Assembly (NCBI GenBank): GCA_964588995.1
Contig: CAZPQM010000010.1
Coordinates: 910 to 64,909 of the forward strand
Source of the DNA: an uncultured Rickettsiales bacterium
GTDB lineage: Bacteria; Pseudomonadota; Alphaproteobacteria; Rickettsiales; UBA8987
Reading direction: 5' to 3'
DNA length: 64,000 nt
Made by a program: the position numbers and the translations under genes. Each line of letters opens with the position of its first letter. Position 1 is the first letter of the stretch. The notes beneath the pieces were generated by a model. That model was not told the DNA's origin, did no database searches, and was given only the letters and a program-made list of their open reading frames with translations. Of this stretch, positions 2,487 through 58,584 are shown one piece after another.

Positions 2487-3527
2487 ATGACCCCCACCGA
2501 ACCGATTGAGCACCAAATCCCAACGCCTGAGCTAGTGGGGATTGGCCACGCGATTGTCGATATCCTTGCCTATAAGGATAAACGTTTTCTGGAAAATAAC
2601 GGCTTTACGCTTGGCTCGATGCAGTTGATTGATGACGAGCAGGTGGCGAAGCTCACGCCGCTCATGGGCGCGGCAACAGAGTGTTCCGGCGGTTCTGCCG
2701 GCAACACCCTCGCCGGTTATGCCATGCTCGGCGGGCATGCGGCGTTTATCGGCAAGGTGCATAGCGACAAGATGGGCGAGATTTTCATTTCTGATATGGA
2801 GCGCGTCGGCGTGCATTATGCCGGGGTGAAGGAAAGTACGGGCGCCCCCACCGCGCGCAGTCTGGTAATGGTCACCGAAGAACCCGACCCGTATGGCGGG
2901 CAACCGGATGTGGAACGCACGATGGCAACCTATCTCGGGATTGCCGGTCAGTTGCGTGCAGAAGATATCGACGACGATGTGATAGCCTGCGCGGAAATCT
3001 TCTATATCGAGGGCTATCTCTGGGACGACGAAGCGACGAAAGACGCCATCCGTCACGCGATTGAGGTCGCGAAACAGAACAACACCAAGGTCGCCTTTAC
3101 GCTCTCCGATCCGTTTTGCGTCGAGCGGCATCACGCGGAATTTCTCGAACTGGTGAAAGAGGATGTTGATATTCTGTTTGCGAATGAGCATGAAATCGAG
3201 GCGCTCATCGGCGAAGGCAGCGACTTGAAGAAAATCCTTCACCGCACCGGGCAGATGGTGGAAACCGCCGCCATTACCCGCTCGGAGCGGGGCTCGTATG
3301 TGGTGCATCAGGGCGAGGTACACGGTATCGATCCGGTAAAAGTTGACAGCGTGTTTGACGTAACCGGCGCGGGAGATCTCTATGCATCCGGCTTTCTTTA
3401 CGGCTATATTAACGGCTTCGAGATGCCAAAAGCCGGGCGGCTTGCGAGCCTATGCGCCTCTGAAGTGATCCAGTATCTCGGCGGGCGACCGGTCACCAAA
3501 CTGCCGAAATTGTTTGAACGGTTATGA
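2487..3527 (+). CDS. PfkB-family carbohydrate/nucleoside kinase (adenosine-kinase-like)
   Basis: 346-aa ORF with the N-terminal GIGHAIVDI motif, GGSAGNT, and the C-terminal DVTGAGDLYASGFLYG PfkB signature. Confidence 0.8.
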   Translation: MTPTEPIEHQIPTPELVGIGHAIVDILAYKDKRFLENNGFTLGSMQLIDDEQVAKLTPLMGAATECSGGSAGNTLAGYAMLGGHAAFIGKVHSDKMGEIFISDMERVGVHYAGVKESTGAPTARSLVMVTEEPDPYGGQPDVERTMATYLGIAGQLRAEDIDDDVIACAEIFYIEGYLWDDEATKDAIRHAIEVAKQNNTKVAFTLSDPFCVERHHAEFLELVKEDVDILFANEHEIEALIGEGSDLKKILHRTGQMVETAAITRSERGSYVVHQGEVHGIDPVKVDSVFDVTGAGDLYASGFLYGYINGFEMPKAGRLASLCASEVIQYLGGRPVTKLPKLFERL

Positions 3528-3544
3528 TGCCTACCACTTTTACT

Positions 3545-3903
3545 GTCATCCTGAGCGGAGAGCGTTTCGCTCGCAGTCGAAGGATCTTATGAAACAGTAT
3601 TATGTATATATTCTTACCAATTATGCGTGTACCGTTCTGTATACGGGGGTCACTAACAATTTAGAACGAAGAATGTTGGAGCATATCCAGAAACGTGTTC
3701 CAGGTTTTACTCAAAAATACAATGTAACCCGCTTGGTATACTTTGAAGATAGCGTAAGTATTGAAGCTGCGCTTGCCCGGGAAAAACAAATTAAAGGATG
3801 GACACGCAAAAAGAAAATCGCCCTGATTGAAGGGGTTAATCCGAACTGGGATGATTTGACTGCAACGTGGTTTAAAGATTCTTCGGCTACGCCTCAGAAT
3901 GAC
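3545..3903 (+). mobile_element. palindromic element carrying a GIY-YIG ORF between its arms (candidate autonomous copy of the 96-bp hairpin family)
   Basis: The left arm gtcatcctgagcgg..gtcgaaggatctt (3545-3588) and right arm aagattcttcgg..cctcagaatgac (3875-3903) are inverted repeats at both their outer and inner ends. The same arms, joined by a 14-nt loop, form the ORF-less copy at 33168-33263. Confidence 0.6.
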
Positions 3904-3924
3904 AAGATGGAAGAGTACGCATGA
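3589..3924 (+). CDS. stand-alone GIY-YIG nuclease family protein (UPF0213-like, ~110 aa)
   Basis: From the ATG at 3589: MKQYYVYILTNYACTVLYTGVTNNLERRMLEHIQKRVPGFTQKYNVTRLVYFEDSVSIEAALAREKQIKGWTRKKKIALIEGVNPNWDDL, the full small GIY-YIG pattern. The track ORF start at 3514 is an upstream read-through of the left arm. The stop overlaps the ampG ATG (ATGA at 3921-3924). Confidence 0.85.
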   Translation: MKQYYVYILTNYACTVLYTGVTNNLERRMLEHIQKRVPGFTQKYNVTRLVYFEDSVSIEAALAREKQIKGWTRKKKIALIEGVNPNWDDLTATWFKDSSATPQNDKMEEYA

Positions 3925-5297
3925 CCGGCTTTGGTGCCTATCTGAAACCGAAACTGATCGTCGTGCTGCTGCTCGGCTTTTCGAGCGGTTTGCCGCGGCT
4001 GCTGATTGCTTCTACCTTAAGTGCGTGGCTTTCGGATAGCAATATTGAGCGTGCAGCGATCGGACTGTTTGCCTATGTTTCCCTGCCGTACAGCTTCAAT
4101 TTTCTTTGGGCACCGTTTATCGATAATCTGCGCTTGCCGCTCTTTTCAAGGCTGGGTCGGCGCGTTGGCTGGGGTATTTTTGCGCAAATGATGGTCGCAG
4201 GCAGCCTGATCTGGCTCGGTCTTAGTGACCCGGCGATAGCGCCCGCGATGACGGCGCTAGCCGCACTATCGGTCGCGTTCTTCTCCGCCTCGCAGGATGT
4301 GGTGATTGATGCCTACCGGACGGAGTATCTCGAAAGCGCCTATTACGGGCAGGGGGCGGCCAATGCGGTGTTCGGCTATCGGCTCGGGATGCTGGTAGCG
4401 GGTGCGGGTGCGCTCTTTTTCGCCGATCATATTCCGTGGACGCAGGTCTATTTCATCATGGCGGCCTTCATGCTGGTTGGTATGATTACGCTGCTGCTGT
4501 CGGGTGAGCCGATAGTTGCAACGTCATCGCCTGAATCGCACAGCGATTCTAGGGCGATCTCCACCAACGCAGCACATGATTCCCCTAGAATTGCCACTGG
4601 CAATTCAGGGAATGACGTTAAAGCAAACTTCTTCCACCATGCCGTGATTGAGCCATTTACCGAGTTCGCCCGTGCGCATCCGCATTGGTTGCTGATTCTA
4701 CTGCTGATCGCCTTCTACCGTATGCCGGACGGGTTTATCGGCTTTATGGCGACGCCCTTTATGCTGGATATCGGCTTTAGCAAAACCGAGGTGGCGAGCA
4801 TCAGCAAACTCTACGGCTTTATCGCGATGACGATCGGCACGATTGCAGGCGGGGCGCTGGTCGGTAAATGGGGGCTATGGCGCGCCTTGTTCTGGTTCGG
4901 CATCATGCAGGTGCTCGCCAATCTGTCGTATCTGTTGCTGGCTAGCTATGGCGCAGAGATCGCGTTGTTGATGGTAACGATTTCACTCGATCAGCTGGCA
5001 GGCGGTCTGGTGACCGCTGCTGCGATTGCCTATATGATGAAGCTCTGCGATCCGCGCTTTACCGCGACGCAATATGCATTGCTGGCAAGCCTTGCCTCCC
5101 TTGCGAGCATATTGCTTGCCGGTGCGGCCGGTTGGGTCGCCGATCAGTATGGCTGGCCGGCGATGTTCAGCCTGTCGGCCTTTATGGGCCTGCCCGCGCT
5201 CGCGCTCCTGCTGCGGTTGAAGGGGCATGTGTCATTTGAAACGCCAGACAAAGCTGAAGGTGAGGAAGCGCGCATCGTCAATCGGGATAACGGTTAA
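3921..5297 (+). CDS. ampG: AmpG-family muropeptide MFS permease
   Basis: 458-aa polytopic ORF. The N-terminus LLGFSSGLPRLLIASTLSAWL and the multi-TM layout are typical of AmpG. The central loop contains a 32-codon repeat insertion. Confidence 0.8.
   Translation: MTGFGAYLKPKLIVVLLLGFSSGLPRLLIASTLSAWLSDSNIERAAIGLFAYVSLPYSFNFLWAPFIDNLRLPLFSRLGRRVGWGIFAQMMVAGSLIWLGLSDPAIAPAMTALAALSVAFFSASQDVVIDAYRTEYLESAYYGQGAANAVFGYRLGMLVAGAGALFFADHIPWTQVYFIMAAFMLVGMITLLLSGEPIVATSSPESHSDSRAISTNAAHDSPRIATGNSGNDVKANFFHHAVIEPFTEFARAHPHWLLILLLIAFYRMPDGFIGFMATPFMLDIGFSKTEVASISKLYGFIAMTIGTIAGGALVGKWGLWRALFWFGIMQVLANLSYLLLASYGAEIALLMVTISLDQLAGGLVTAAAIAYMMKLCDPRFTATQYALLASLASLASILLAGAAGWVADQYGWPAMFSLSAFMGLPALALLLRLKGHVSFETPDKAEGEEARIVNRDNG
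4522..4617. repeat. 96-bp palindromic element inserted in-frame in ampG
   Basis: cgtcatcgcctgaat (4522-4536) is the inverted repeat of attcagggaatgacg (4603-4617) with 2 mismatches, and inner gattctaggg / ccctagaatt also pair. The element encodes ..SSPESHSDSRAISTNAAHDSPRIATGNSGND.. in the central loop. Confidence 0.65.
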
Positions 5298-5307
5298 GCG
5301 TTTATAA

Positions 5308-5457
5308 CGTCAACGCGAACGCTGTGCCGCGATCTCGGGCCGCAGCATTTCGCAAGAGATTGCCACGCGGCTTTGTCACTCGCAATGACAGACAACGGGT
5401 CATTCTGAAGACCGGAAGATCCGTTGCCGTAACTGCTATGAAGCTCCTCAGATCAAG
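5308..5457. repeat. two adjacent palindromic elements filling the ampG-phoB intergenic region
   Basis: Element 1 (5308-5389) is cgtcaacgcgaacg..gcgatctc // gagattgccacgcgg..ctcgcaatgac. Element 2 (5399-5457) is gtcattctgaagaccggaagatcc .. gaagctcctcagatcaag, a degenerate copy of the gtcatYctga / tcagRatgac family. Confidence 0.55.
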
Positions 5458-12441: not shown

Positions 12442-15102
12442 ATGCAAGGGTTATTTATTTTATTTGCGCTGTTTGCCGCTATTTCCGCTCTGATAATGCC
12501 CTGGGTGGCGCTTGCGCGCATCAACCGGCTGGAAGATGAGCTGATCAAACTCCGCAAAATACTTGGTGCATTAACCAGAGGCGAGACACGCTCCGCACCG
12601 ACAGCCGCAACCACGGCAAGCGTAACGGAGCCGTCTATTTCAGCTAAACCAACGCCTACCGAAAGCAAGCCGGTAGCCCCTGAACCGCCTGCGGATAGCA
12701 CCCCTCAGCGTGCCGAGCCGGAGCCGGATACGCCCAAACCTTCTTTTGAAGAACGGTTCGGGGCGCGGATGCCGGTCTGGATTGGCGGGATAGCCCTAGC
12801 CCTCGGCGGGCTGTACCTCGTGAAATACTCCATTGACGCCGGCTGGTTGAGCCCAATGAACCGGGTGATTCTGGGATTACTGCTTGGGCTTGGCCTGCAA
12901 TGGGGTGCAGCGCAGTGCCGCAAACGTCCGGATATGGCGAACGGTCGGCGCATAGGTCAGGCGCTTGCGGGGGCGGGCATTGTCGTGCTCTATGTCGCCA
13001 TCTTTGCCGCTGCTTCGCTCTACAGCCTGATTGCGCCGTGGCTTGGGTTTCTGGGTATGGGTGTCGTTACGGCAGCCGCGCTCGTCCAGAGCCTCAAATT
13101 CGGTGCTCCGATAGCGCTGATCGGTTTGCTGGGTGGTTTTCTCACCCCGGCGCTCATCAGCAGCAACCAGCCGGATGTCATGATGCTCCTGCTGTATGTG
13201 TATATCGTCTTTTCCGGGCTGATGGTGGTGATCCGCAAAGAACGCTGGTGGATGCTCTCGCTCCCGACGATGCTCGGAGCGTTTGCGTGGGTTGCCCTTT
13301 GGCTCGGCACCAGCTTTACACCGGATGATACGATCTGGCTCGGGCTGTTCCTCGTTGCCGTCAGTGCAACAACGGTGATTACCAGCCACCGGGAATTTAT
13401 TGAAGGTGAAAAGGCGGTCACGCTAAAGGGCCATCTGCGCCCCACCGCGATCCTGAATTATATCAGCCTTGCCACCGCCCTGCTTTTTACCGGGATCCTT
13501 GCCGCGGAAGGCGGCTTCGGCATGATGCAGTGGGTCTTATTCCTGATCTTATCGCTCGGCGCGGTCGGGCTGGCCTGGTTTGACGACCGGCATTACGGCT
13601 TTGCCCCCTGGGCAGCAATGGCGGTCAATCTCATCATGCTATTTGTCTGGGAGCCGCATGATGCGAACATCGCCCGCTGGGGCTTCTATGCCGTCCTCTT
13701 CGGCGCGCTCTTTGCCGGGCTAGGCTATCGCCTGATGTGGAAAGCACGGCTACCGCTGCTCTGGGCCGGTTTGTGCGGATTCGCGCTGATAGGCTATTAC
13801 CTGCTCGCCGCCTATCGGTTGTATGATGTCGAAACCATCGGCAATATCTACCTGTTCTGGGGTTGGGTAGGGCTCGCACTCGCCGCCTTTGCCGCCTATA
13901 CGGTTACGACGCTGCAACGCGCCATGCGCCCCGGCAAGACGCAGGATTACTGCATTGCCCTGTTTGCGCTGGTTTGTACGGCACTTCTGACCCTCGCTCT
14001 CGCGCTGGAGATGCGCTACGAATTCCTCTCGCTCGCCGTTGCGCTGGAGATGCTCGCCGTCATGTGGATCTATCACCGCCTGCTGCTGCCGGGCCTGCCG
14101 CATATTGCGATTGCGCTTGCAGTGGTGTTCGGTTTTCTCCTCCTGCCGCAATGGCTGCTTGCAGGCCAGCTTGCGCTGAAAGGGTTGTTTGATCAAACGG
14201 TGCGTCTTCCGGTGGATCTGCCGGTGATGCAATGGCCGCTCGTGCAGCTCGCGATCCCGGCTGGCTGTTTTATCGCGACCGCGCGCCTGTTCGAGCGGCA
14301 TCGCCTGATCCCGCGTTTTATGAAAGTGGCGGATATCATCGCAATCGTGCTGCTTACGCTTGCGGGCTATTACCTGATGCGGACATTCTTCCTGACAGGG
14401 AATGCGGACCCGCTTTATTTCAAGCCGAGTTTCTGGCAGCGTGGACTGGTCACGACTGGCTGTTTTCTCGCCGGGTTACTCTGCGTGTGGATTGCGCAAA
14501 AACGGCAGGCCTCGCATATCGGCGTGACCGGTATGGTGCTTTGCGCTGTTGCGCTGTTCCGGGTGGTGTATTTTGATATCGTTATTTCCAACCCACTTAT
14601 CATCTGGCACCAGATACACGGCGTACCCCTCTTCAACACGCTCACGCTGGTTTACATGGTGCCCTTTGCGCTGACGCTGCTGCTCGAGCGGATGATAAAT
14701 CTCGAGCATTTCCCGAAATGGCATAAGGCGCTGCACATTGCACAGTTTCTGATATTGTTTGCGTTTATTACCCTTTCGGTGCGGCAGGTATTTGATGATA
14801 ATAATGTGCTCGCACACCAACCGGGTCAGGCTAGCAATTTGGAAATGTACAGCTATTCCGTCGTCTGGCTGTTATTTGGTATTGGGCTCTTATTTGCAGG
14901 GATTTACAAGCAAAGCCGCTCTATCCGCTATGCTTCGATGGGTGTCATGCTGCTCGCAATCGGTAAGGTGTTCCTGTATGACGCGAGCGAGCTGGAGGGG
15001 CTGCTCCGCGTCGCCTCCTTCCTTGGGCTGGGCGCAAGCCTCATTGGCCTCAGCTGGGTCTATTCCAAATATGTATTGGTAAGCCATGCAAAGGCTGATT
15101 AA
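12442..15102 (+). CDS. DUF2339-like polytopic membrane protein
   Basis: The preferred start is MQGLFILFALF (12442); the track ORF starts at 12337. One TM helix plus a short coiled segment (RLEDELIKLRKIL) and a proline-rich linker are followed by more than 20 predicted TM helices. Confidence 0.65.
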   Translation: MQGLFILFALFAAISALIMPWVALARINRLEDELIKLRKILGALTRGETRSAPTAATTASVTEPSISAKPTPTESKPVAPEPPADSTPQRAEPEPDTPKPSFEERFGARMPVWIGGIALALGGLYLVKYSIDAGWLSPMNRVILGLLLGLGLQWGAAQCRKRPDMANGRRIGQALAGAGIVVLYVAIFAAASLYSLIAPWLGFLGMGVVTAAALVQSLKFGAPIALIGLLGGFLTPALISSNQPDVMMLLLYVYIVFSGLMVVIRKERWWMLSLPTMLGAFAWVALWLGTSFTPDDTIWLGLFLVAVSATTVITSHREFIEGEKAVTLKGHLRPTAILNYISLATALLFTGILAAEGGFGMMQWVLFLILSLGAVGLAWFDDRHYGFAPWAAMAVNLIMLFVWEPHDANIARWGFYAVLFGALFAGLGYRLMWKARLPLLWAGLCGFALIGYYLLAAYRLYDVETIGNIYLFWGWVGLALAAFAAYTVTTLQRAMRPGKTQDYCIALFALVCTALLTLALALEMRYEFLSLAVALEMLAVMWIYHRLLLPGLPHIAIALAVVFGFLLLPQWLLAGQLALKGLFDQTVRLPVDLPVMQWPLVQLAIPAGCFIATARLFERHRLIPRFMKVADIIAIVLLTLAGYYLMRTFFLTGNADPLYFKPSFWQRGLVTTGCFLAGLLCVWIAQKRQASHIGVTGMVLCAVALFRVVYFDIVISNPLIIWHQIHGVPLFNTLTLVYMVPFALTLLLERMINLEHFPKWHKALHIAQFLILFAFITLSVRQVFDDNNVLAHQPGQASNLEMYSYSVVWLLFGIGLLFAGIYKQSRSIRYASMGVMLLAIGKVFLYDASELEGLLRVASFLGLGASLIGLSWVYSKYVLVSHAKAD

Positions 15103-17804: not shown

Positions 17805-17960
17805 CGTCATTCCTGTTTTACCCCGTCATCACAAGGAGGGTGTTTGCCCGACGCGGTGATCTCAGGCCATATGTCTGTCATTACAAGCCGAATGCGACGT
17901 AATGTCATTATGGGTTCCCCTGCACGAGATTGCTTCGTCGTTTCACTCCTCGCAATGACG
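17805..17960. repeat. cluster of CGTCAT...ATGACG palindromic elements in the intergenic region
   Basis: A solo cgtcattcctg end at 17805 is followed by cgtcatcacaaggagg..gcggtgatctc (17824-) paired with gagattgcttcgtcgtttcactcctcgcaatgacg (-17960). An internal gtcattac..gtaatgtcat palindrome lies between them. Confidence 0.55.
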
Positions 17961-32684: not shown

Positions 32685-33740
32685 ATGGAGCAGTTGCCTA
32701 CTATTACCCATATCCACGCCGTACTCGTCACCTATCGGCCGGATCCGGCAGTTACGGATCGGCTGGAGGCAACCCATAAGCAGGTGGAAAAACTCATAAT
32801 TATAGACAATGCTTCCGATGCGGCAACCGTAGAAAGGCTGCAAACCTATGCGGCACAGCATGAGAAAACGGTGGACCTTATCCTGAACGAGCATAATAAA
32901 GGCCTCGCAGCTGCGCAGAATCAGGGCATCCGCTACGCGCTGGAGCATGGCGCGGACTGGATATTGCTGCTGGATGATGACTCCACCCCAGCCGAAGCTA
33001 TGGTGCAGATATTATTGGATTTCCTGCCCCGGCGTGGCGACGGTGGCCCTCAAGGCAAACCAACCGCCCTGCTGGCTCCGCATATAATCCAGCCCGACAG
33101 CCCGCACCCGACGCGTTATGTCGTACCGAGGGGTAAGCTCGGCTTTCGGCGAGTGCATTTTAGTGGCCGTCATTCTGAACGAGGCGCAGCCGAGTCGAAG
33201 AATCTTCCTCCTGACCAAGTAAGATCCTTCGATTCCGTGCAAGCGCGCTTCACTCAGGATGACAACGAGCAGAACACCCTCTACCCGACAACCGTCATCG
33301 CCTCCGGCTCGCTGATCCATGCGGATGTGCTGCGGGAAATCGGGCTGATGCGGGAGGATTTTTTTATCGACTATATCGATACGGAATTTTGTCTGCGTCT
33401 GCGTAAGCATGGCTACCCTATCATTGTGGTGCGTGATGCTGAACTGACGCACCATATTGGCGCTAAGCAGGCCCATGCGCTGGGTGTGGTCACCTCCAAC
33501 CATAGCGCAAAACGCCGCTATACCATCTTCCGCAACCGCTTCATCGTCTGGAAACAGTATCATCGCTCCTCCCCACACTATGTTCTCTATGACGCGATGG
33601 CAGCGTGTTATGATCTCTTCCGCATTCTTGCTTTTGAGCAGCAAAAACGTAGTAAGCTAGGCGCCGCTTTAAGGGGTTTATGGCATGGGGTACGCGGCAA
33701 AATGGATTTTGTCCCTTACATATTGTTAAAAAATGAATAG
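32685..33740 (+). CDS. family 2 glycosyltransferase (rhamnosyltransferase-like)
   Basis: VLVTYRP, IIIDNASD, GLAAAQNQG and LLLDDDS (DxD) motifs. It carries a 32-codon repeat insertion at aa 162-193. Confidence 0.8.
   Translation: MEQLPTITHIHAVLVTYRPDPAVTDRLEATHKQVEKLIIIDNASDAATVERLQTYAAQHEKTVDLILNEHNKGLAAAQNQGIRYALEHGADWILLLDDDSTPAEAMVQILLDFLPRRGDGGPQGKPTALLAPHIIQPDSPHPTRYVVPRGKLGFRRVHFSGRHSERGAAESKNLPPDQVRSFDSVQARFTQDDNEQNTLYPTTVIASGSLIHADVLREIGLMREDFFIDYIDTEFCLRLRKHGYPIIVVRDAELTHHIGAKQAHALGVVTSNHSAKRRYTIFRNRFIVWKQYHRSSPHYVLYDAMAACYDLFRILAFEQQKRSKLGAALRGLWHGVRGKMDFVPYILLKNE
33168..33263. repeat. 96-bp hairpin element (ORF-less relative of the GIY-YIG element) inserted in-frame in the GT2 gene
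   Basis: Left arm gtcattctgaacgagg..gtcgaagaatctt (33169-33206), 14-nt loop, right arm aagatccttcg..cttcactcaggatgac (33221-33263). Position 33168 is codon position 1 and the length is exactly 32 codons, encoding RHSERGAAESKNLPPDQVRSFDSVQARFTQDD. Confidence 0.7.
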
Positions 33741-33859: not shown

Positions 33860-35605
33860 ATGACAGACGCATTGGATATGAACACGCTGCTGAGCGCGAA
33901 TAGCTGGCCGTTTCAGGAGGCAAAAAAGCTCAAAGAGCGTATCGAAAAAACACCGCCGGAAAAAGGCTATGTGCTGTTTGAAACCGGCTACGGCCCTTCC
34001 GGCCTGCCGCATATCGGCACGTTCGGCGAAGTGTTCCGCACGACTATGGTCCGTCAGGCCTTTGCGCGGATTTCCCACTATCCGACCCGGCTGATCGCCT
34101 TCTCGGATGATATGGACGGTTTGCGTAAAGTTCCGGATAACGTGCCAAACCCGAAGCTACTTGAGGCAAATCTGGGCAAGCCACTCACCGAAGTGCCCGA
34201 CCCGTTTGAGCAATATGACAGCTTCGCCGCGCATAACAACGCTAAGCTTCGTGAGTTTCTTGATCAGTTCGGCTTCGCCTATGAATTCAAAAGCGCAACG
34301 GAATGCTACCGCTCCGGTGAGTTCGATGAGGCGCTACTGGCCGCCCTGAAGCAATATGACGCTATTATGAAAATTATGCTGCCGACGCTCGGAGAAGAAC
34401 GTCAGCAAACCTATTCGCCCTTTATGCCGATTGACCCCGAAACGCGGCAGGTCTTACAGGTCAAAACCTTAGAGACGCGACCCGAACAAGGTACGATTAT
34501 ATATGAGCACCCTGAACACGGGCCAACCGAAACCAAAGTCACGGGCGGCGCCGTCAAACTGCAATGGAAACCTGATTGGGGCATGCGCTGGGCGGCGCTG
34601 GGTGTCGATTATGAAATGCACGGTAAGGATCTAACGCCATCGGTGGTGGTGTCGAGCAAGATTGCACGTGTGCTGTTGAAAGAGATGTATACTCGTAACT
34701 CCCCCTTGACGGGGGAGCCTGAGAATGCGGATGCATTGTCAGGTGGGGGTGGTATTATCCAAACCCACACCCCCCCTCCTGCATCTAAGATGCAGACTCC
34801 CCCGCAAGGGGGGAGTTACACCCTACCCGAACCGCCACTGACCTACGTCTATGAAATGTTTTTGGATGAGAAGGGCGAGAAAATTTCCAAATCCAAAGGC
34901 AACGGCATCAGTCTGGAGGATTGGCTGAGTTACGGTACGCCGGAAAGCCTTGCACTCTATATGTTCAATAATCCGCGCAAGGCCAAACGGCTGTATTTCG
35001 ACGTGATCCCTCAGCATGTCGATGAATATCTGAAACATCTGCAAGCGGTTGACCCCGAGAATCATGTGAAGCTGCTGCTGAATCCGGTCTGGCATATTCA
35101 TAACGGTGAGGTGCCGGAGGACGCAGTACCGATAACTTTCAGCCTGCTGCTCAACCTCGCAAGCGCGTGCAACCCGGAAGATAAATCGGTGCTCTGGGGC
35201 TTTATTACGCGCTATCAGCCGGACGCTATGCCGGAAACGCATAAACTGCTCGATGAGCTGGTGGAATATGCGATTGCGTACTATGAAGATTTTGTGAAAC
35301 CGCATAAGGAATATCACACGCTCTGCGACAAAGGCCGCGCGATCATGGAAGATATGAAGGACCGGCTACGCAAGGTTGCTGATCCGAATGATCCGGCAGA
35401 ATTGCAGCAAGTGGTGCTGGATACGGCAAAAGCGCATGGTTTTGAAAAAGACACGATGCGTGATGCCTATAAGCTGCTGTACCGCACCCTCTTCGGGCAG
35501 GAATCCGGGCCGCGCATGGGGAGCTTCATCGCGCTTTACGGGGTCGAGGAAACAATCGGGCTGATAGACGAAGCGCTCGCGCGGACCAACGATGAAGCGG
35601 CGTAA
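33860..35605 (+). CDS. lysS: lysyl-tRNA synthetase, class I
   Basis: FETGYGPSGLPHIGTFGEV (HIGH-type) and GEKISKSKGNG (KMSKS-type) motifs with class I LysRS organisation. A ~45-50-aa repeat-derived insertion lies ~25 aa upstream of the KISKS loop. Confidence 0.9.
   Translation: MTDALDMNTLLSANSWPFQEAKKLKERIEKTPPEKGYVLFETGYGPSGLPHIGTFGEVFRTTMVRQAFARISHYPTRLIAFSDDMDGLRKVPDNVPNPKLLEANLGKPLTEVPDPFEQYDSFAAHNNAKLREFLDQFGFAYEFKSATECYRSGEFDEALLAALKQYDAIMKIMLPTLGEERQQTYSPFMPIDPETRQVLQVKTLETRPEQGTIIYEHPEHGPTETKVTGGAVKLQWKPDWGMRWAALGVDYEMHGKDLTPSVVVSSKIARVLLKEMYTRNSPLTGEPENADALSGGGGIIQTHTPPPASKMQTPPQGGSYTLPEPPLTYVYEMFLDEKGEKISKSKGNGISLEDWLSYGTPESLALYMFNNPRKAKRLYFDVIPQHVDEYLKHLQAVDPENHVKLLLNPVWHIHNGEVPEDAVPITFSLLLNLASACNPEDKSVLWGFITRYQPDAMPETHKLLDELVEYAIAYYEDFVKPHKEYHTLCDKGRAIMEDMKDRLRKVADPNDPAELQQVVLDTAKAHGFEKDTMRDAYKLLYRTLFGQESGPRMGSFIALYGVEETIGLIDEALARTNDEAA
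34695..34819. repeat. composite palindromic element inside lysS, translated in-frame
   Basis: The outer units gtaa-ctccccc-ttgac-gggggag (34695-) and ctccccc-gcaag-gggggag-ttac (-34819) are each hairpins and are inverted repeats of one another. Further hairpins lie between them (cctgagaatgc/gcattgtcagg, ctgcatct/agatgcag). Confidence 0.55.
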
Positions 35606-36894: not shown

Positions 36895-39800
36895 ATGCCG
36901 ATAGGAGCTTATTTCCGTCGCAGTACAGCTATTGCGTTCATCGCGGGCAGTTTAATCACTGTCACCGCCCCTTTCGTGATGGCGCAAGCGATTGATTTCG
37001 GTCGTCCACTTATCAATGCTGCCGATCAGGGCAATCTCGAACAGGTAGAGCAGATTCTGGGCAAGGGCGTTAACCCTAACCGCCGGGGTAAATTTGAAGC
37101 GACCGCGCTGATGCGAGCCGCCTATAACGGCCATACTGACGTAGCTAAAGCATTGCTGGGCGCCGGTGCCGACGTCAATGCCCCCGATGTCGGTGGTGCG
37201 ACCGCGTTGCATCTGGCTGCGCGGGAAGGTCATAGCGAGCTCGCGACACTGCTGATCCGAAGCGGCGCTGATGTTAATTTGCGCGACGGAGAAGGTTGGA
37301 CGCCGCTGATGCGCGCCGTAGCCTCGGAAGAACCGCTCATTGTACAGAAGCTACTGGATGAAGGCGCTACCACCGGCGCCCGCGCCTTTACCGGAGAAAC
37401 CGCGCTGATCCTCGCCGTACGCCGCCGCAATGCCGAACTCGTGAGTACGTTGCTGCAATATGGCGCCGATCCTTCGCTGACCGATAACGACGGCTACAGC
37501 CCGATTGATATCGCTACCCAGCAAAACAGCGATGCGATGCGCTCACAGTTGATTGCGGCGAAGAAAGCGCCGCGCCCTGCACCGCGTCAGGATCCGCTAC
37601 CGCCTGCGTCCCTGCCTCCGGGCCGCTCCCCGGCAGCCGCATCCGAGCCGGTGCCTCCCTCCGATACCGGGCCGATCAGCGAATATAGTGCAGGGGCTAC
37701 TTACCTGCCACCGTCGATTGAGACGCCACTCGGCGAGGCGTTTGACGCACGGCTTTCCCGCTTTCCCGAGGGTGATCCCTACCGCTCTAAAGCAGTTGAG
37801 GCGGCGCGCCGTGTCGAGCAGGCACAGGCAGCACAACTTGCCGCCGAACGGGCCGCACGCAATGCCGCCGCCGAGCTGGAAGCCTTGCGCGAAAAAGAAC
37901 GGGAAGTGCAGCGTGCCGCCGTTGATGAGGAAGCCGCTCGCACTGCTGCTGCTCAGGCCGAAATTGAACGCATCCGTGCCGAGCTGGTGCTTGCAGAACG
38001 GGCCGTAGGCGAAGCCGAGAAAGATCTAAACCGTGCAAATGCGGAGCTGGAAGCGGTCAAAACACAGGCGGTGGAAGCGCTTGCCTCCCTTAATAGCGAG
38101 GTGAGTAGCGAAACGGCCCGGCTCAATCAGGAACTGCAGCAGGCGCAAGCTGCTATCCAGCGGGCGAAGGTCAATCGTCAGTCCGCTCAGCAACGAAAAA
38201 CCGAAGCGCTAGACCGGCAGGAAAAAGAAAATGCGCGCATGATGGCCGCCCGTAAAGCGGCGGATGAAGCGCTCGTGATCGCGCAGCAACGCGCTGCCGT
38301 AGTCGATGAGGCGCGGTCGGAGCTTCGTGCGTTTCAGCGGCAGGCGCAGGATCTGATTATCCGCGAAAGCCGCGGCGAAACACCGAATGGCCGCCGCCGT
38401 CCGGCCGCCAATGCTGCCCGTACCGATGAAGAATGGTGGAAGGAGCGCGCCGGGATCGAAGATACACCCCCGGAATCCGCTGCTACCCGCTTAGCCGGCT
38501 CACAAAGCGCCATGCAGCAAAGCCTGCAGAAGGCCGAATCGCTGGAGGCCAAAGTACGTGAGGAAAATGAGGCGCGTCAGGCTGCGCAGCGTGCTGAGAC
38601 CGAGGCTATGCGGGTCGCGGTCGAAGTCTCGCAGGTCGCGGCGCAAACCGCGGCAACAGTGGAGAATGCCGAGCAGGATATGCGCAAGGCCGCTGCCGCT
38701 ATCACTGCCGGGGAAACGCGCATCGCGGAAATTCAGGCTGCACTCGAACGGCAGGATCGTAAAATTGCCGATACGCGCCGTAAGATCGAGCAGCAGAATG
38801 CACTTGCCCTTAAAAAAGCCGAAGCCAATCAGGACGCGGCAGAAGTACAACTTGCCGAGGCACAGCAAACGGTCGGACAGCTTCAGGAGCAACTGGAGGC
38901 AGCACGGTTGATCGCATCCGAACGCACGCAGAAATTCCGCCGGATGCAAGCTATTTCCGCGCAAGAGGCCGAGCAGCGCGCACTTGAAGCGCGGCAGCGT
39001 TTAGCCGCAGCAGAAAAAGCAGCACGGGAAGCGGATAAGCGTATTGAGGCCTCCGTTGCCGAGGCGCGCAGGGCGGAACGCCTCGCACAAGCTGCCGAGG
39101 CGAAACGTCTCGCTGCGATTGAGGCAGAGAAAAAACGCCGCGAAGTGGAACTGATTAAAAAAGCGGAAACCGAGCGTATCCGCCGTATGCAACTGGCAAA
39201 AGCGCAGGAGGAGGCGGATCAGATTCTGGGTGAAGCCCGGCGGATGGAAGAACAGGCGGCGAATATTGCCGGTGCGGCCTCCGAACGGATTGAGCAGGCG
39301 CAGGCGGAAGAGCGGCTGGCGCAGGAAGCGATTGAAGAGGCCGAGGCAAAAATCCGCGCAGCGCAAATGGCGGAGGATAGCGTGGTTATGGCCAAGCAGC
39401 GCGCCGCAGAAGCTACGGAGCGGGCGCGACTGGCAGCGGCTGAGATCAAAGCCGCGCGTGCAGCAGCGCAGGCGGAAGAGGCGCGGAAGCGTCGCGAACT
39501 AGCCGAAGAGCAGGCGCGTATCATCGAAGAAGCCCGCAAGCGCCGCCGCGAAATCGAGCAGGCGGAAATTGCCGCTGCGCGTGAACGTGCCGAGAAAGCA
39601 GCGCAGGCAGCGCAACTGCTTGCTCAGAAAATGCAGGAAGCGGAGCGTATGGCAGCCGATGCGGCGCGGCGTGACAAATTCCTTGCCGCGCAGGATGCCG
39701 CAGCCGAGCTCAAGGAAAACCAGATCAGGCAGGAAGAGGCAAGCGCAGCGGAACGGCTCGCAAGCGCGATGGTCCGTGCGGCTGAAACCGAGTCGGAAGC

Positions 39801-41811
39801 CACCCTCGCGCAGGCAAAGGTGCGCCGCGCCGAACTCGATGCACAGGCACGTGAAATGGAAGCCGAGCTGAAAGCGGCACGCGAAGAGGCGGAACGTATC
39901 GCGCAGGCCACCATCCTCGCCGCCGAGGAAGAAGCCGCAGCTCGGATAGCAGCGGCGCAGCGGCGCATTCAGGAAGAGGAAGCGCGCCTCGCCGCCGCGC
40001 AGGAACAGGCGGAGATTGCCCGTATCGCCAAGCTGGAAGCGGCTGAGAAAGTGAAGGAAGCAAAAGCACGCGAAGCCGAGCGCCTCAAGCGTATCAAACT
40101 GGCCGAAGCGCAGGCCGAAGCCGAACGCAAGCTGGAGGAAGCGCGCATTCAGGCGCTGGAAGAAAAAGCGCGTGAGCGTATTCAGGCAGCGCGTCTGAAG
40201 GCGGAAGAAATCGAGAAAGCACAGCTGCAGGCGGCGCGAATCAAGGCCGAGGCCGAAGAAGAGAAACAGCTTGCTGAAGCACGTATACAGGCGGCGGAGG
40301 ATGCAGCACGCATAGCCGCGATGCGTATCCGTGCCGAAGAGGAAGCCGCGAAACGCGTCGCCGAGATGCGTATCCGCGATGCAGCGGAAGAAGCGGCCTT
40401 ATTGCAGGCGGAAAAGATCCGTGCAGCAGAAGAAAAAGCGATCGAAATCGCGAACGAAGAGCTGCAGAAAGCCGAGCAGCAGGCGAGTGCAATCCTGGAA
40501 GAGGCCGAACAGCAGGAGCAGCAATCGGCTGAGCTTTCCGCCACGATGCTGCGTATGGCGGAAGAAGAAGCCGAGCAGAAACGTCGTACGGCGGTTGAAG
40601 CCCTTGCCCGCGCCGAACTGGAAGCAGAGCAAAAACTGACACTGGCCGAAATCGAAGCCGAGCGGGCGCGTGCACGGGAATTGGCGCAAGCCCGGCGCGA
40701 TGCAGCCTTAACGGCTGAACAAATCCGGGCCGAAGCACGCGAACTTGCCCGTCTGGCCCGTGAGCGCGCACGCTTGGAGGAAGAACAGTCCGCGGAGATA
40801 GTTGAACAGCGCCGCGCAGAAGCCCGCCGGATTGCCGAGCAGGCTGACCGCACGATTGAAGAAGCCGAGCGCGAGGCGGAGCGCATAAAAGAACTGAAAA
40901 TCAAGCAGGCTGAGATTGAAGCGCTGGAGCGTGCCGCCCGTACCGCGGCAGAAGAACGGCTGCGGGCAAAAGAGCGCGCGGCCGAAGCGGCAGCTGCAGC
41001 AGAAGCTGAGCGCATCCGGGCTGAGGCGGCCAACCGCCGGGCTCTTGAGCAGGAACGGCTGATCCGTGAGCAATATCAAGGCCTGCCGGACTTTGTCGAT
41101 GAAACGGTGATCCGTGAGGATTTACAACGCGCCCGCGAAGAGGCCGAGCGGCTACAACGTGAAGCGCTGCAGGCTACTCCCACGGTAAAACCGCGCTCAC
41201 CGCGCCCTGAACCCGCACCGCCTGCCCAGCCTGAACCGCCTCGTGAGCCTGCCCCTGCCCCGCAAACTCCACCACAACAGCCACAGCTGGATTTACCGGA
41301 AGTGCAGGAACTAAGCCTGCCGGAATTAGAGGCGTCCTCCGATAAACCGTTACCGCGTGCAGCCAATCAGGAACCTACCACGGCAACCCTGCCGGAAGCG
41401 CTGAACGAAGAGATCGAATCGATCATTGCCGAACTGCCGGCACGGGAGAACCTCCCCTCACGGGCGCGTGATTCGGCGCGGGTACAAATCGCCGAAGCGG
41501 TCCGTGTCCCGGCTGACCAGAACGGCAATGTCGAATATGAATGGTTTGACCCGTCCGCCTCACCGGATACGGCGGCGCCCCTCTTTATTCAGGTCGGCCC
41601 GTTTGATTCGGAGGATTCCGCCGCGACCTATTTCACGACTGTGGTGAGCCGCAACCGCCTGACCGAATATAGTCTGAATGTCATGCCGCCCGCGGAAAGC
41701 CGCCCGGGCTATCGCCTCAAGATAGGCCCGATCGCGCGGCAAGGGCAGATTGCTGAACTCTGCGTCCTCTTCGGCAGTGAGGGCCTTGTCTGCTCGCAGC
41801 ATACCGAGTAA
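36895..41811 (+). CDS. 1638-aa exported protein: ankyrin repeats, a ~1150-aa A/E/R/K/Q coiled-coil region and a C-terminal SPOR domain
   Basis: The preferred ATG at 36895 follows AGGGGG and gives a signal-like MPIGAYFRRSTAIAFIAGSLITVTAPFVMAQA. Five or six ANK repeats lie at ~37015-37546 (TALMRAAYNGHTDVAKALLGAGADVN, TALHLAAREGH.., TPLMRAV..). The C-terminus LFIQVGPFDSEDSAATYF...GYRLKIGPIARQGQIAELC fits SPOR. Confidence 0.8.
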   Translation: MPIGAYFRRSTAIAFIAGSLITVTAPFVMAQAIDFGRPLINAADQGNLEQVEQILGKGVNPNRRGKFEATALMRAAYNGHTDVAKALLGAGADVNAPDVGGATALHLAAREGHSELATLLIRSGADVNLRDGEGWTPLMRAVASEEPLIVQKLLDEGATTGARAFTGETALILAVRRRNAELVSTLLQYGADPSLTDNDGYSPIDIATQQNSDAMRSQLIAAKKAPRPAPRQDPLPPASLPPGRSPAAASEPVPPSDTGPISEYSAGATYLPPSIETPLGEAFDARLSRFPEGDPYRSKAVEAARRVEQAQAAQLAAERAARNAAAELEALREKEREVQRAAVDEEAARTAAAQAEIERIRAELVLAERAVGEAEKDLNRANAELEAVKTQAVEALASLNSEVSSETARLNQELQQAQAAIQRAKVNRQSAQQRKTEALDRQEKENARMMAARKAADEALVIAQQRAAVVDEARSELRAFQRQAQDLIIRESRGETPNGRRRPAANAARTDEEWWKERAGIEDTPPESAATRLAGSQSAMQQSLQKAESLEAKVREENEARQAAQRAETEAMRVAVEVSQVAAQTAATVENAEQDMRKAAAAITAGETRIAEIQAALERQDRKIADTRRKIEQQNALALKKAEANQDAAEVQLAEAQQTVGQLQEQLEAARLIASERTQKFRRMQAISAQEAEQRALEARQRLAAAEKAAREADKRIEASVAEARRAERLAQAAEAKRLAAIEAEKKRREVELIKKAETERIRRMQLAKAQEEADQILGEARRMEEQAANIAGAASERIEQAQAEERLAQEAIEEAEAKIRAAQMAEDSVVMAKQRAAEATERARLAAAEIKAARAAAQAEEARKRRELAEEQARIIEEARKRRREIEQAEIAAARERAEKAAQAAQLLAQKMQEAERMAADAARRDKFLAAQDAAAELKENQIRQEEASAAERLASAMVRAAETESEATLAQAKVRRAELDAQAREMEAELKAAREEAERIAQATILAAEEEAAARIAAAQRRIQEEEARLAAAQEQAEIARIAKLEAAEKVKEAKAREAERLKRIKLAEAQAEAERKLEEARIQALEEKARERIQAARLKAEEIEKAQLQAARIKAEAEEEKQLAEARIQAAEDAARIAAMRIRAEEEAAKRVAEMRIRDAAEEAALLQAEKIRAAEEKAIEIANEELQKAEQQASAILEEAEQQEQQSAELSATMLRMAEEEAEQKRRTAVEALARAELEAEQKLTLAEIEAERARARELAQARRDAALTAEQIRAEARELARLARERARLEEEQSAEIVEQRRAEARRIAEQADRTIEEAEREAERIKELKIKQAEIEALERAARTAAEERLRAKERAAEAAAAAEAERIRAEAANRRALEQERLIREQYQGLPDFVDETVIREDLQRAREEAERLQREALQATPTVKPRSPRPEPAPPAQPEPPREPAPAPQTPPQQPQLDLPEVQELSLPELEASSDKPLPRAANQEPTTATLPEALNEEIESIIAELPARENLPSRARDSARVQIAEAVRVPADQNGNVEYEWFDPSASPDTAAPLFIQVGPFDSEDSAATYFTTVVSRNRLTEYSLNVMPPAESRPGYRLKIGPIARQGQIAELCVLFGSEGLVCSQHTE

Positions 41812-58206: not shown

Positions 58207-58283
58207 CGGGGTGTAGCGCAGTCTGGTAGCGCACTTGTCTGGGGGACAAGGGGTCGTGGGTTCAAATCCCGCCACTCCGACCA
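58207..58283 (+). tRNA. tRNA-Pro (anticodon GGG)
   Basis: Hand-folded: acceptor cggggtg/cactccg (one G-U), D arm gcgc-agtctggta-gcgc, anticodon arm cttgt-ctGGGgg-acaag, T arm gtggg-ttcaaat-cccgc, discriminator A, encoded CCA. 77 nt. Confidence 0.95.
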
Positions 58284-58311: not shown

Positions 58312-58584
58312 TAGACAATGTTAGCTAATTCTGAAGTATTTTGCCATGAGACTGATGTTGTTAAAGAACAAGGAAAATATCGCCGGGAATAGTGGGCTTA
58401 TTTCCAAGAGATTTTTCGCCGTTATTTGGCAACATCAGCCATGGTTCTGCTAATTGCAGCCTAAATCGCTGCTCGCAGCGTTAAAGCGCTTGCCAATAGA
58501 ACCACTATTAACTGCACGCTTTGTCTTGCGAATCAACGATTTAGGCTAGCAACAAAATATTTCAGAATTAGCTAACAGTGTCTA
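58312..58584. mobile_element. 273-bp non-coding element with 32-bp terminal inverted repeats (MITE-like) 29 nt downstream of tRNA-Pro
   Basis: tagacaatgttagctaattctgaagtattttg (58312-58343) and caaaatatttcagaattagctaacagtgtcta (58553-58584) match as inverted repeats at 30/32 positions. The interior has nested inverted repeats (ccatgagactgatgttg/caacatcagccatgg; gcctaaatcg/cgatttaggc) and no ORF. Confidence 0.6.

Follow-up and report, generated by a model that had tools for sequence, protein, structure and literature searches.

A GIY-YIG nuclease gene between inverted hairpin repeats at an operon junction of an uncultured Rickettsiales bacterium, with gene-less repeat relatives nearby

We analysed a DNA stretch of 64,000 nucleotides from an uncultured Rickettsiales bacterium (NCBI GenBank assembly GCA_964588995.1, contig CAZPQM010000010.1, positions 910 to 64,909 of the forward strand; hereafter the window), in which a small GIY-YIG nuclease gene lies between two inverted repeat arms. 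The open reading frame (ORF) occupies positions 3589-3924 of the plus strand (ATG at 3589, stop codon at 3922-3924) and encodes 111 aa, with GIY-YIG (PF01541, E=3.7e-15, residues 3-76) as the sole domain found by Pfam. It is preceded by a pfkB-family kinase gene (2487-3527, plus strand, PF00294, E=2.9e-43; stop codon at 3525-3527) and followed by an ampG-like gene for a major facilitator superfamily transporter (3921-5297, plus strand, PF07690; homologues annotated AmpG). The left arm (3544-3588, plus strand, TGTCATCCTGAGCGGAGAGCGTTTCGCTCGCAGTCGAAGGATCTT) begins 17 nt past the pfkB stop codon and directly abuts the start of the ORF, with a Shine-Dalgarno-like GAAGGA (3579-3584) in its 3' half, 4 nt before the ATG. 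The right arm (3875-3904, minus strand, AAGATTCTTCGGCTACGCCTCAGAATGACA) lies within the ORF, whose last 16 codons come from this arm and the 17 nt beyond it, and whose stop codon overlaps the ampG ATG (3921) as ATGA. This is the layout of the original prediction, which had placed a nuclease ORF between inverted arms 17 nt after the kinase stop and had it read through the right arm into an ATGA overlap with ampG. Judging from its sequence, the protein is very probably an Ssn-family nuclease with cognate Ssn-related motif (SRM) hairpins, which are CGTC-tagged repetitive extragenic palindromes (REPs); we refer to the gene as ssn and to the gene together with its arms as the cassette.

Both arms are built on one plan, namely a (C/T)GTC tag, a stem beginning with AT, an interior, a complementary stem ending in AT, and then C-T. 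The left arm, an SRM/CGTC-type REP unit, reads TGTC-ATCCT-(28-nt interior)-AGGAT-CTT, and the right arm, likewise an SRM unit, reads TGTC-ATTCT-GA-GGC-GTA-GCC-GA-AGAAT-CTT. Their outer ends (TGTCATCCTGAG / CTCAGAATGACA) are 92% complementary over the outer 12 nt, their inner motifs (GTCGAAGGATCTT / AAGATTCTTCGGC) are inverted relative to each other, and the inner motif GTCGAAGRATCTT is common to both, so that the predicted inversion at outer and inner ends holds. The single long palindrome that had been proposed does not, as each arm is a hairpin unit of its own and the pair is therefore a dimer. In the predicted fold of the left arm the 5-bp outer stem and an inner GAGCG/CGCTC stem are kept (z only -0.57), and the right arm folds as predicted (z=-1.64), reaching 10 stacked positions only when two G.A pairs are counted. 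We presume that the canonical interior, GA-GC-GNA-GC-GA, forms tandem G.A pairs around a GCGNAGC mini-hairpin, an arrangement established for DNA mini-hairpins.

The right arm also leaves its mark on the protein. Many homologues end in ...DSSLRSE or ...DPSLRSG, which is the translation of AGATTCTTCGCTnCGCTCAGAATGA, and in the many with the tail ...DSSLRSE* the stop codon accordingly falls within the right arm, inside CTCAGAATGAC. The window arm carries two extra nucleotides (GGC/GCC vs GC/GC) that shift the frame, and the ORF therefore continues to the ampG start.

At least 7,994 protein homologues were found, typically 60-71% identical over about 95 residues, with hosts in Cyanobacteria, Nitrospirae, Planctomycetes, Verrucomicrobia, Chloroflexi, Bacteroidota and Proteobacteria, among others. 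Y7, Y18, R27/R28 and E65 are invariant in an alignment of 20 of them (A2). The window protein had no family match in NCBIfam and no record in an exact-sequence look-up, and its only match in the PDB was a weak one to the UPF0213 protein BH0048 (1ZG2; E=7e-4, 22.8 bits).

The pairing of such a protein with such repeats has been described. Chenal et al. (2025, Nat Commun 16:2388; PMC11893778) defined the Neisseria NTS repeat as CGTCATTCCCGCGMAVGCGGGAATCYRG and found that the gene most often flanked by such repeats across bacteria encodes SsnA, a 94-aa single-domain GIY-YIG protein (CDD cd10448), with at least one SRM in 71% of homologue neighbourhoods and SRMs on both sides in 42%. SsnA and three homologues bound the hairpin only as single-stranded DNA (ssDNA), on one strand, and cut it a few nucleotides upstream; Ssn enzymes did not cleave double-stranded DNA, inactivity on RNA counts as a further mark of the family, and in N. 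meningitidis SsnA lowers transformation by NTS-containing DNA (PMC11893778). The residues mutated in SsnA were Y6, Y17 and E64 (PMC11893778), to which Y7, Y18 and E65 of the window protein correspond by position only, one position off. The original prediction knew of no characterised mobility mechanism for small GIY-YIG proteins paired with hairpin arms; this is outdated in that ssDNA binding and cutting by such a pair has been published. For the window protein, nuclease activity is predicted from its homology to SsnA and the three homologues assayed in that study. The NTS-ssnA-NTS arrangement was likened by the same authors to an insertion sequence (IS) and compared with RAYT/REP, as a hypothesis only (PMC11893778).

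The repeats themselves were described earlier by Di Nocera et al. (2013; PMC3733652) as CGTC-tagged REPs, with a CGTC/TGTC tag, a stem starting with AT and a short tail; they form inverted dimers in most cases, with heterodimers common, are found most often in Alphaproteobacteria, and were identified with dRS3 and with Rickettsia RPE-4 and RPE-6. In-frame dimers inside genes encode 20-30 aa, and the family was noted to "apparently lack a dedicated transposase" (PMC3733652). The window units share with them the tag, A-T and T-A as the first stem pairs, the short unpaired tail and the predominance of inverted dimers, including intragenic in-frame ones (two of four in the window). They differ in that the 2013 survey identified no protein dedicated to its repeats, and in that the ssn arms have longer and less regular interiors than the 8-9-bp stems and 4-5-nt loops of the published families (PMC3733652). 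The window matches the Ssn/SRM system in its single-domain GIY-YIG protein (about 95-110 aa), in the inverted hairpin repeats, each some 28 nt long, that enclose the gene, in their (C/T)GTCAT tag and ATC-Y end, and in the many gene-less genomic copies. The window arms depart from that system in their 5-bp Watson-Crick stem, GAGCG..CGAAG-type or longer interior and lack of a match to the published pattern. Unlike N. meningitidis, where the NTS is intragenic in 2% of cases (PMC11893778), the window has two dimers in frame inside genes; its host is an uncultured alphaproteobacterium, and its enzyme is known from sequence. The locus is a real instance of the Ssn/SRM (CGTC-REP) system, but a rediscovery of it, the pairing having appeared in print in 2025 and its repeat family in 2013.

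We fetched 80 genomic loci of ssn homologues (L001-L080; 77 with both flanks available) and located units in them by a simple rule of tag, stem and complement. A plus-strand unit within 200 nt upstream of the gene was present in 53 of the 77 loci and a minus-strand unit within 250 nt downstream in 59, with both in 45 and at least one in 67, so that other copies of the gene do carry such arms. Against a background of 0.21 units per kb, measured on both strands more than 1 kb from the gene, this is an enrichment of roughly 30-fold, and the association of gene and unit is general across dozens of phyla, not a local chance. The stem types include ATTCT/AGAAT, ATCCT/AGGAT, ATGCT/AGCAT, ATTGC/GCAAT and ATTCC/GGAAT, at least 8 types recur in several loci, and the Flavobacteriia unit is a perfect hairpin (GTCATTCCTGCGTAGGCAGGAATCT). 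A test that did not presuppose pairing gave the same picture: 357 of 947 TGTCAT sites were followed by a complementary triplet and ATC, compared with 59.8 +/- 7.0 (maximum 86) when the triplets were permuted 500 times, and the stem thus covaries across loci. Median unit length is 28 nt and the flanks are unconserved beyond position -2 (position -1 in 493 units: T 73%, C 12%), both as in the published NTS. In one homologue (L065), 57% identical to the window protein (E=2e-31), the exact NTS core GTCATTCCCGCGAAAGCGGGAATC precedes the ATG by 17 nt.

Units also occur in the window away from the gene. A structural scan of the window for GTC, a 5-nt stem, a 3-45-nt loop, the complementary stem and C returned 12 matches, compared with 3.4 +/- 1.9 in dinucleotide shuffles. 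Two of the 12 were set aside (a tRNA arm and a short chance match); every window unit begins (C/T)GTCAT and ends ATC. Four convergent dimers, with the tags outermost, were found: the one around the ORF (3545/3903) and three without a gene, at 4523-4616, 17825-17959 and 33168-33263. The last is a 96-bp element in a glycosyltransferase (GT2) gene (32685-33740), in which the outer and inner motifs of the cassette surround a 14-nt spacer and the ATTCT and ATCCT arms of the cassette stand in opposite orientation. In global alignments the ssn left arm matched the reverse complement of the right arm of this element with about 80% identity (z=13.6), and the ssn right arm matched its left arm (z=11.1), with none of 300 shuffled controls reaching the score in either case, a comparison set beforehand as the test of the proposed kinship. 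The same two arm types therefore occur with and without the ORF, as had been proposed, although the best match is to the element turned around. That gene-less relatives are scattered through the window is likewise borne out, with the proviso that the ATCCT and ATTCT stems of the cassette are shared only by the dimer at 33168. The dimer in the ampG ORF (4523-4616, in frame) has stems ATCGCC and ATTCCCC, unlike the ssn arms; its stems are longer and stable, and its units fold strongly as ssDNA (z=-5.0 and -5.4). The intergenic cluster at 17825-17959 consists of an ATCAC-type unit (plus strand), a degenerate ATTAC-type unit and an ATTGC-type unit (minus strand). A divergent intergenic pair after ampG (5358-5425, repeat family D13) joins an ATTGC-type unit (5358-5389, minus strand) to a degenerate ATTCT-type unit (5400-5425, plus strand).

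Both intragenic dimers are insertions relative to homologues. The dimer in the glycosyltransferase gene is an in-frame insertion of 32-33 codons, the 33-aa stretch SGRHSERGAAESKNLPPDQVRSFDSVQARFTQDD being absent from 11/11 aligned homologues, and in nearly all of the 150 listed homologues the match is split into two stretches around the insert. Similarly, most AmpG homologues lack the roughly 25 aa for which 4523-4616 codes.

The cassette itself is an insertion at a coupled junction. In three relatives (L083, L084, L085/L086) the order kdsB-pfkB-ampG is found without ssn, and the pfkB stop codon abuts or overlaps the ampG ATG, as TAATG or TAG|ATG, and no gene intervenes. The window has 393 nt (3528-3920) between pfkB and ampG, and the ssn ORF re-creates an ATGA overlap with ampG. 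Because pfkB and ampG abut or overlap in all three relatives, the cassette is an insertion at this junction; as the original prediction had stated, it is embedded in host transcription and translation, being translationally coupled to ampG. The comparison of empty sites yields a gene-free junction; no relative was close enough for an empty site at the nucleotide level, the best AmpG homologues being 54-56% identical, and the named AmpG homologues come from metagenome-assembled genomes (MAGs) of Rickettsiales or Alphaproteobacteria. The one sequence found on both sides of the cassette is ATGA, once at the end of pfkB and once where ampG begins, as would be expected if translational coupling were under selection.

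Several palindromes of other kinds were seen along the way. The window kdsB gene (1579-2421) holds an in-frame insert of about 35 aa (PHPNPLPAGKGIKKVISPSGRGRDSAAVEGEG) at 1846-1963, from a different palindromic family with nested inverted repeats (1846-1866/1943-1963 and 1870-1887/1905-1922), and its product measures 280 aa compared with 242-246 aa in relatives. Three AmpG homologues (P0122, P0143, P0207; alignment A3, columns ~215-300) have unrelated inserts of their own in the central loop that receives the window dimer, one of which (P0143, ..NPLPLKKGGGV..SPSEGKGA..) resembles the kdsB-type palindromic insert; this loop seems to be a tolerated landing site. A third palindromic family, at 34695-34819 (GTAACTCCCCCTTGACGGGGGAG.. 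/ ..CTCCCCCGCAAGGGGGGAGTTAC, 27-nt arms 85% complementary), lies in frame within a 581-aa ORF (33860-35605) with class-I aminoacyl-tRNA-synthetase-like HIGT and KISKS motifs, and the host genome, like that of Rickettsia, seems to put up with palindromic inserts of several kinds in its coding sequences. Just downstream of a tRNA gene (58207-58280), an inverted repeat of 32 nt at 58312-58584 (94% complementary, arms 209 nt apart) may represent a further small mobile element or the scar of an integration. Long degenerate direct repeats rich in GAA/GCG/GCC codons at 38900-41200 (families D1, D2, D11, D12 and D15) probably encode a repetitive Glu/Ala/Arg-rich protein.

Contigs assembled from the source sample in Logan break inside the right arm, and one ends inside the kdsB palindromic element, which indicates that both are multi-copy repeats in that sample. 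A reading of these breaks as an empty-site polymorphism was rejected, as the contigs merely end within the right arm and the kdsB insert.

The right arm recurs far beyond the window. Its exact 27-nt sequence (AGATTCTTCGGCTACGCCTCAGAATGA) matched at least 120 metagenome contigs (loci L087-L206) with GC contents of 25-71%, at 114 distinct flanks among the matches listed. In 75 of the 111 listed matches that could be judged it formed the right half of a convergent dimer, and the left arm of these dimers was of the ATCCT type in 45 of the 75, as around the window gene. None of the at least 120 contigs listed (636 kb in total) encodes an Ssn homologue, and the right arm is thus better conserved as DNA than the nuclease genes are, whose proteins share about 65% identity. 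Gene-less pairs were common in the homologous loci as well (89 convergent, 65 divergent and 37 tandem), and in both these and the metagenome dimers the spacers held no ORF remnant and were unrelated to the ORF ends.

A single genome may harbour more than one pairing of enzyme and repeat. Two loci of the same Chloroflexota MAG (L014 and L075) encode Ssn paralogues 66% identical to each other, with ATTCC-type units beside one and ATCCT-type units beside the other. This suggests that repeat classes are specific to paralogues, in keeping with the published sequence specificity, and that the other stem classes of the window (ATCGCC/ATTCCCC, ATCAC/ATTGC and ATTGC) belong to paralogues elsewhere in the genome.

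Combining these results, we chart a model for the locus. By homology, we expect the protein to bind the folded arm on the TGTCAT...ATCT strand, only as ssDNA, and to cut this strand within the non-conserved flank, a few nucleotides 5' of the tag. With the arms inverted, one nick is predicted immediately beyond each end of the cassette, the two being on opposite strands. Window dimers that lack a gene would be further members of the same repeat population, with the dimer at 33168-33263, which has the same stems, a likely substrate of the window enzyme, and the dimers with other stems probably served by paralogues. On this model the cassette inserted between pfkB and ampG in a conserved kdsB-pfkB-ampG operon, and it is now co-transcribed and translationally coupled to ampG.

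The nuclease-hairpin pair most likely behaves like a RAYT/REPIN system, by analogy with which each genome would carry the protein gene once or a few times, alongside numerous non-autonomous hairpin dimers. Like REPIN/RAYT, the window has a protein gene between inverted hairpin repeats, abundant gene-less inverted dimers and an implied recognition of ssDNA hairpins; it differs in having a GIY-YIG hydrolase and a (C/T)GTC tag, compared with an HUH/Y1 transposase and a GTAG tag. The nuclease may have a role in dispersal of the repeats, whereby the spread of dimers would depend on ssDNA nicks made by the enzyme and on host replication or repair. Mobility is pointed to by the insertion of the cassette and of two dimers, by an identical arm in very different genomes, by the patchy distribution of similar proteins across phyla and by the difference in GC at third codon positions (GC3) between ssn and its neighbours (0.39 vs 0.66).

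Several observations weigh against this reading. With standard DNA energy parameters the folds of the ssn arms and of the GT2-gene dimer arms are not distinguishable from those of shuffles (z from -1.6 to +1.4), and the case for a hairpin in these arms therefore rests on the covarying 5-bp stem and the presumed G.A pairs. No direct repeats flank any of the four window dimers, so that the target-site duplications sought there are lacking. We know of no strand transfer by GIY-YIG enzymes, which hydrolyse DNA. The ssn gene has a GC content of 0.395, compared with 0.56 in the neighbouring genes, but it is below the host flank in 80/80 loci (mean gap 9.4 points) and correlates with host GC across them (r=0.90). 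Its low GC is thus a family-wide trait that tracks the host and is no proof of recent transfer. Finally, the published degenerate SRM pattern, HGTCWYN(0-2)YYVSBRHN(0-5)WNVSBRGN(0-2)RNCYNB, matches neither window arm, and it matched the flanks of 1/77 loci (L065); its single match in the window, at 13206, is at chance level (shuffle mean 0.25). The units observed are more diverse than this pattern allows.

A stronger form of mobility, in which the cassette is an autonomous GIY-YIG-driven transposon with the arms as terminal inverted repeats, and in which its nuclease moves the gene-less dimers in trans as non-autonomous copies, is possible but doubtful. It would account for the position of the cassette in a conserved operon junction, the in-frame dimers in two genes, the same arm heterodimer with and without the ORF, the exact 27-nt arm at 114 distinct flanks among the matches listed in contigs of 25-71% GC, and Ssn proteins 60-71% identical across phyla, and an IS-like layout was itself remarked by Chenal et al. 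(PMC11893778). As in IS200/IS605 elements and in pairs of an autonomous transposon with miniature inverted-repeat transposable elements (MITEs), there are hairpin ends, short gene-less relatives and, as in IS200/IS605, no target-site duplication. However, the absence of duplications at the four dimers counts against a transposon; no transposase is encoded, Pfam finding no such domain (no TnpA or DDE transposase), and we know of no joining activity of GIY-YIG enzymes. Further, the hairpins are inverted and the predicted nicks lie on opposite strands, unlike the same-strand excision of IS200/IS605. The dimer spacers are unrelated to the ORF ends, and the gene-less copies are therefore not visibly deletion derivatives as in MITE pairs. 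No transposition has been reported, the one tested phenotype being restriction of transforming ssDNA. From the predicted relationship of an autonomous element to its MITE, then, what stands is a gene in the spacer of a repeat pair that also exists gene-less; duplication, transposase and derivation by deletion do not.

Alternatively, the gene may have been domesticated and have no current mobility, serving in ssDNA restriction or recombination control as proposed for Neisseria, with the repeats kept by selection, an account to which we give rather low credence. The experimental data from N. meningitidis (PMC11893778) favour such a function, as do the integration of the gene into an operon with translational coupling and the correlation of ssn GC with host GC over 80 loci (r=0.90), which suggests long residence. 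Yet in-frame inserts in housekeeping-type genes and an identical 27-mer across very different genomes look selfish, and the GC3 of the window gene is far from that of its neighbours.

Less probable still, and in our view unlikely, is a homing-type origin, in which dimers came first and the nuclease ORF invaded the spacer of a pre-existing one, through cleavage next to a unit and subsequent recombinational repair across the short homologous arms. Homing endonucleases are common among GIY-YIG enzymes, and the catalytic fold of the window protein is that of I-TevI-type homing endonucleases and of UPF0213/YhbQ-type proteins. The ORF falls precisely between the two arm types that make up a cosmopolitan ATCCT/ATTCT heterodimer, one nearly always gene-less in metagenomes (0 of at least 120 right-arm contigs listed with an Ssn homologue; ATCCT left arm in 45/75 listed dimers). 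Arms of 30-45 nt, however, offer very little homology for recombination, and Ssn enzymes, which leave double-stranded DNA uncut, are without the DNA-binding domain that homing endonucleases have. GIY-YIG homing endonucleases are found in introns, phages or organelles, whereas the window protein is a single domain encoded in a chromosomal operon, and in other genomes, such as L008, the arm types that flank the gene differ from those of the local gene-less dimers. The homing and domestication accounts are not mutually exclusive with a REPIN/RAYT-like relationship. That the arms are ordinary regulatory hairpins (terminators or attenuators) beside a small nuclease gene by chance is highly improbable: intergenic hairpins are common and a Shine-Dalgarno-like sequence lies within the left arm, but tagged units of this kind stand beside homologues across dozens of phyla roughly 30-fold above background, their stems covary, units also lie inside coding sequences, and a scan for T-tract terminators and promoters gave nothing above chance. 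An Rfam scan of the whole window at gathering thresholds found two tRNAs only.

The link between small GIY-YIG nucleases and tagged hairpins answers the puzzle, raised in 2013, of CGTC-tagged REPs without a dedicated transposase, an answer that was published in 2025; the original prediction had independently re-derived the IS/MITE analogy raised as a hypothesis by Chenal et al. Since the published SRM pattern misses most of the repeats beside the closest homologues, the published census numbers may be underestimates. Tentatively, and against the balance of our expectations, ssn and its hairpins could be an active mobile cassette with the gene-less dimers as its non-autonomous partners, a transposon or homing class run by a hydrolytic GIY-YIG ssDNA nickase and host repair in place of a transposase; such a class, if real, could cross phyla and insert in frame into genes. 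More firmly, the locus provides useful but incremental evidence that the cassette and gene-less dimers inserted into new sites. It adds a clean example, with a cassette at an operon junction that is intact in relatives and two in-frame dimer insertions, and an arm sequence identical in contigs of very different GC, and these additions bear on whether and how Ssn nucleases spread their repeats.

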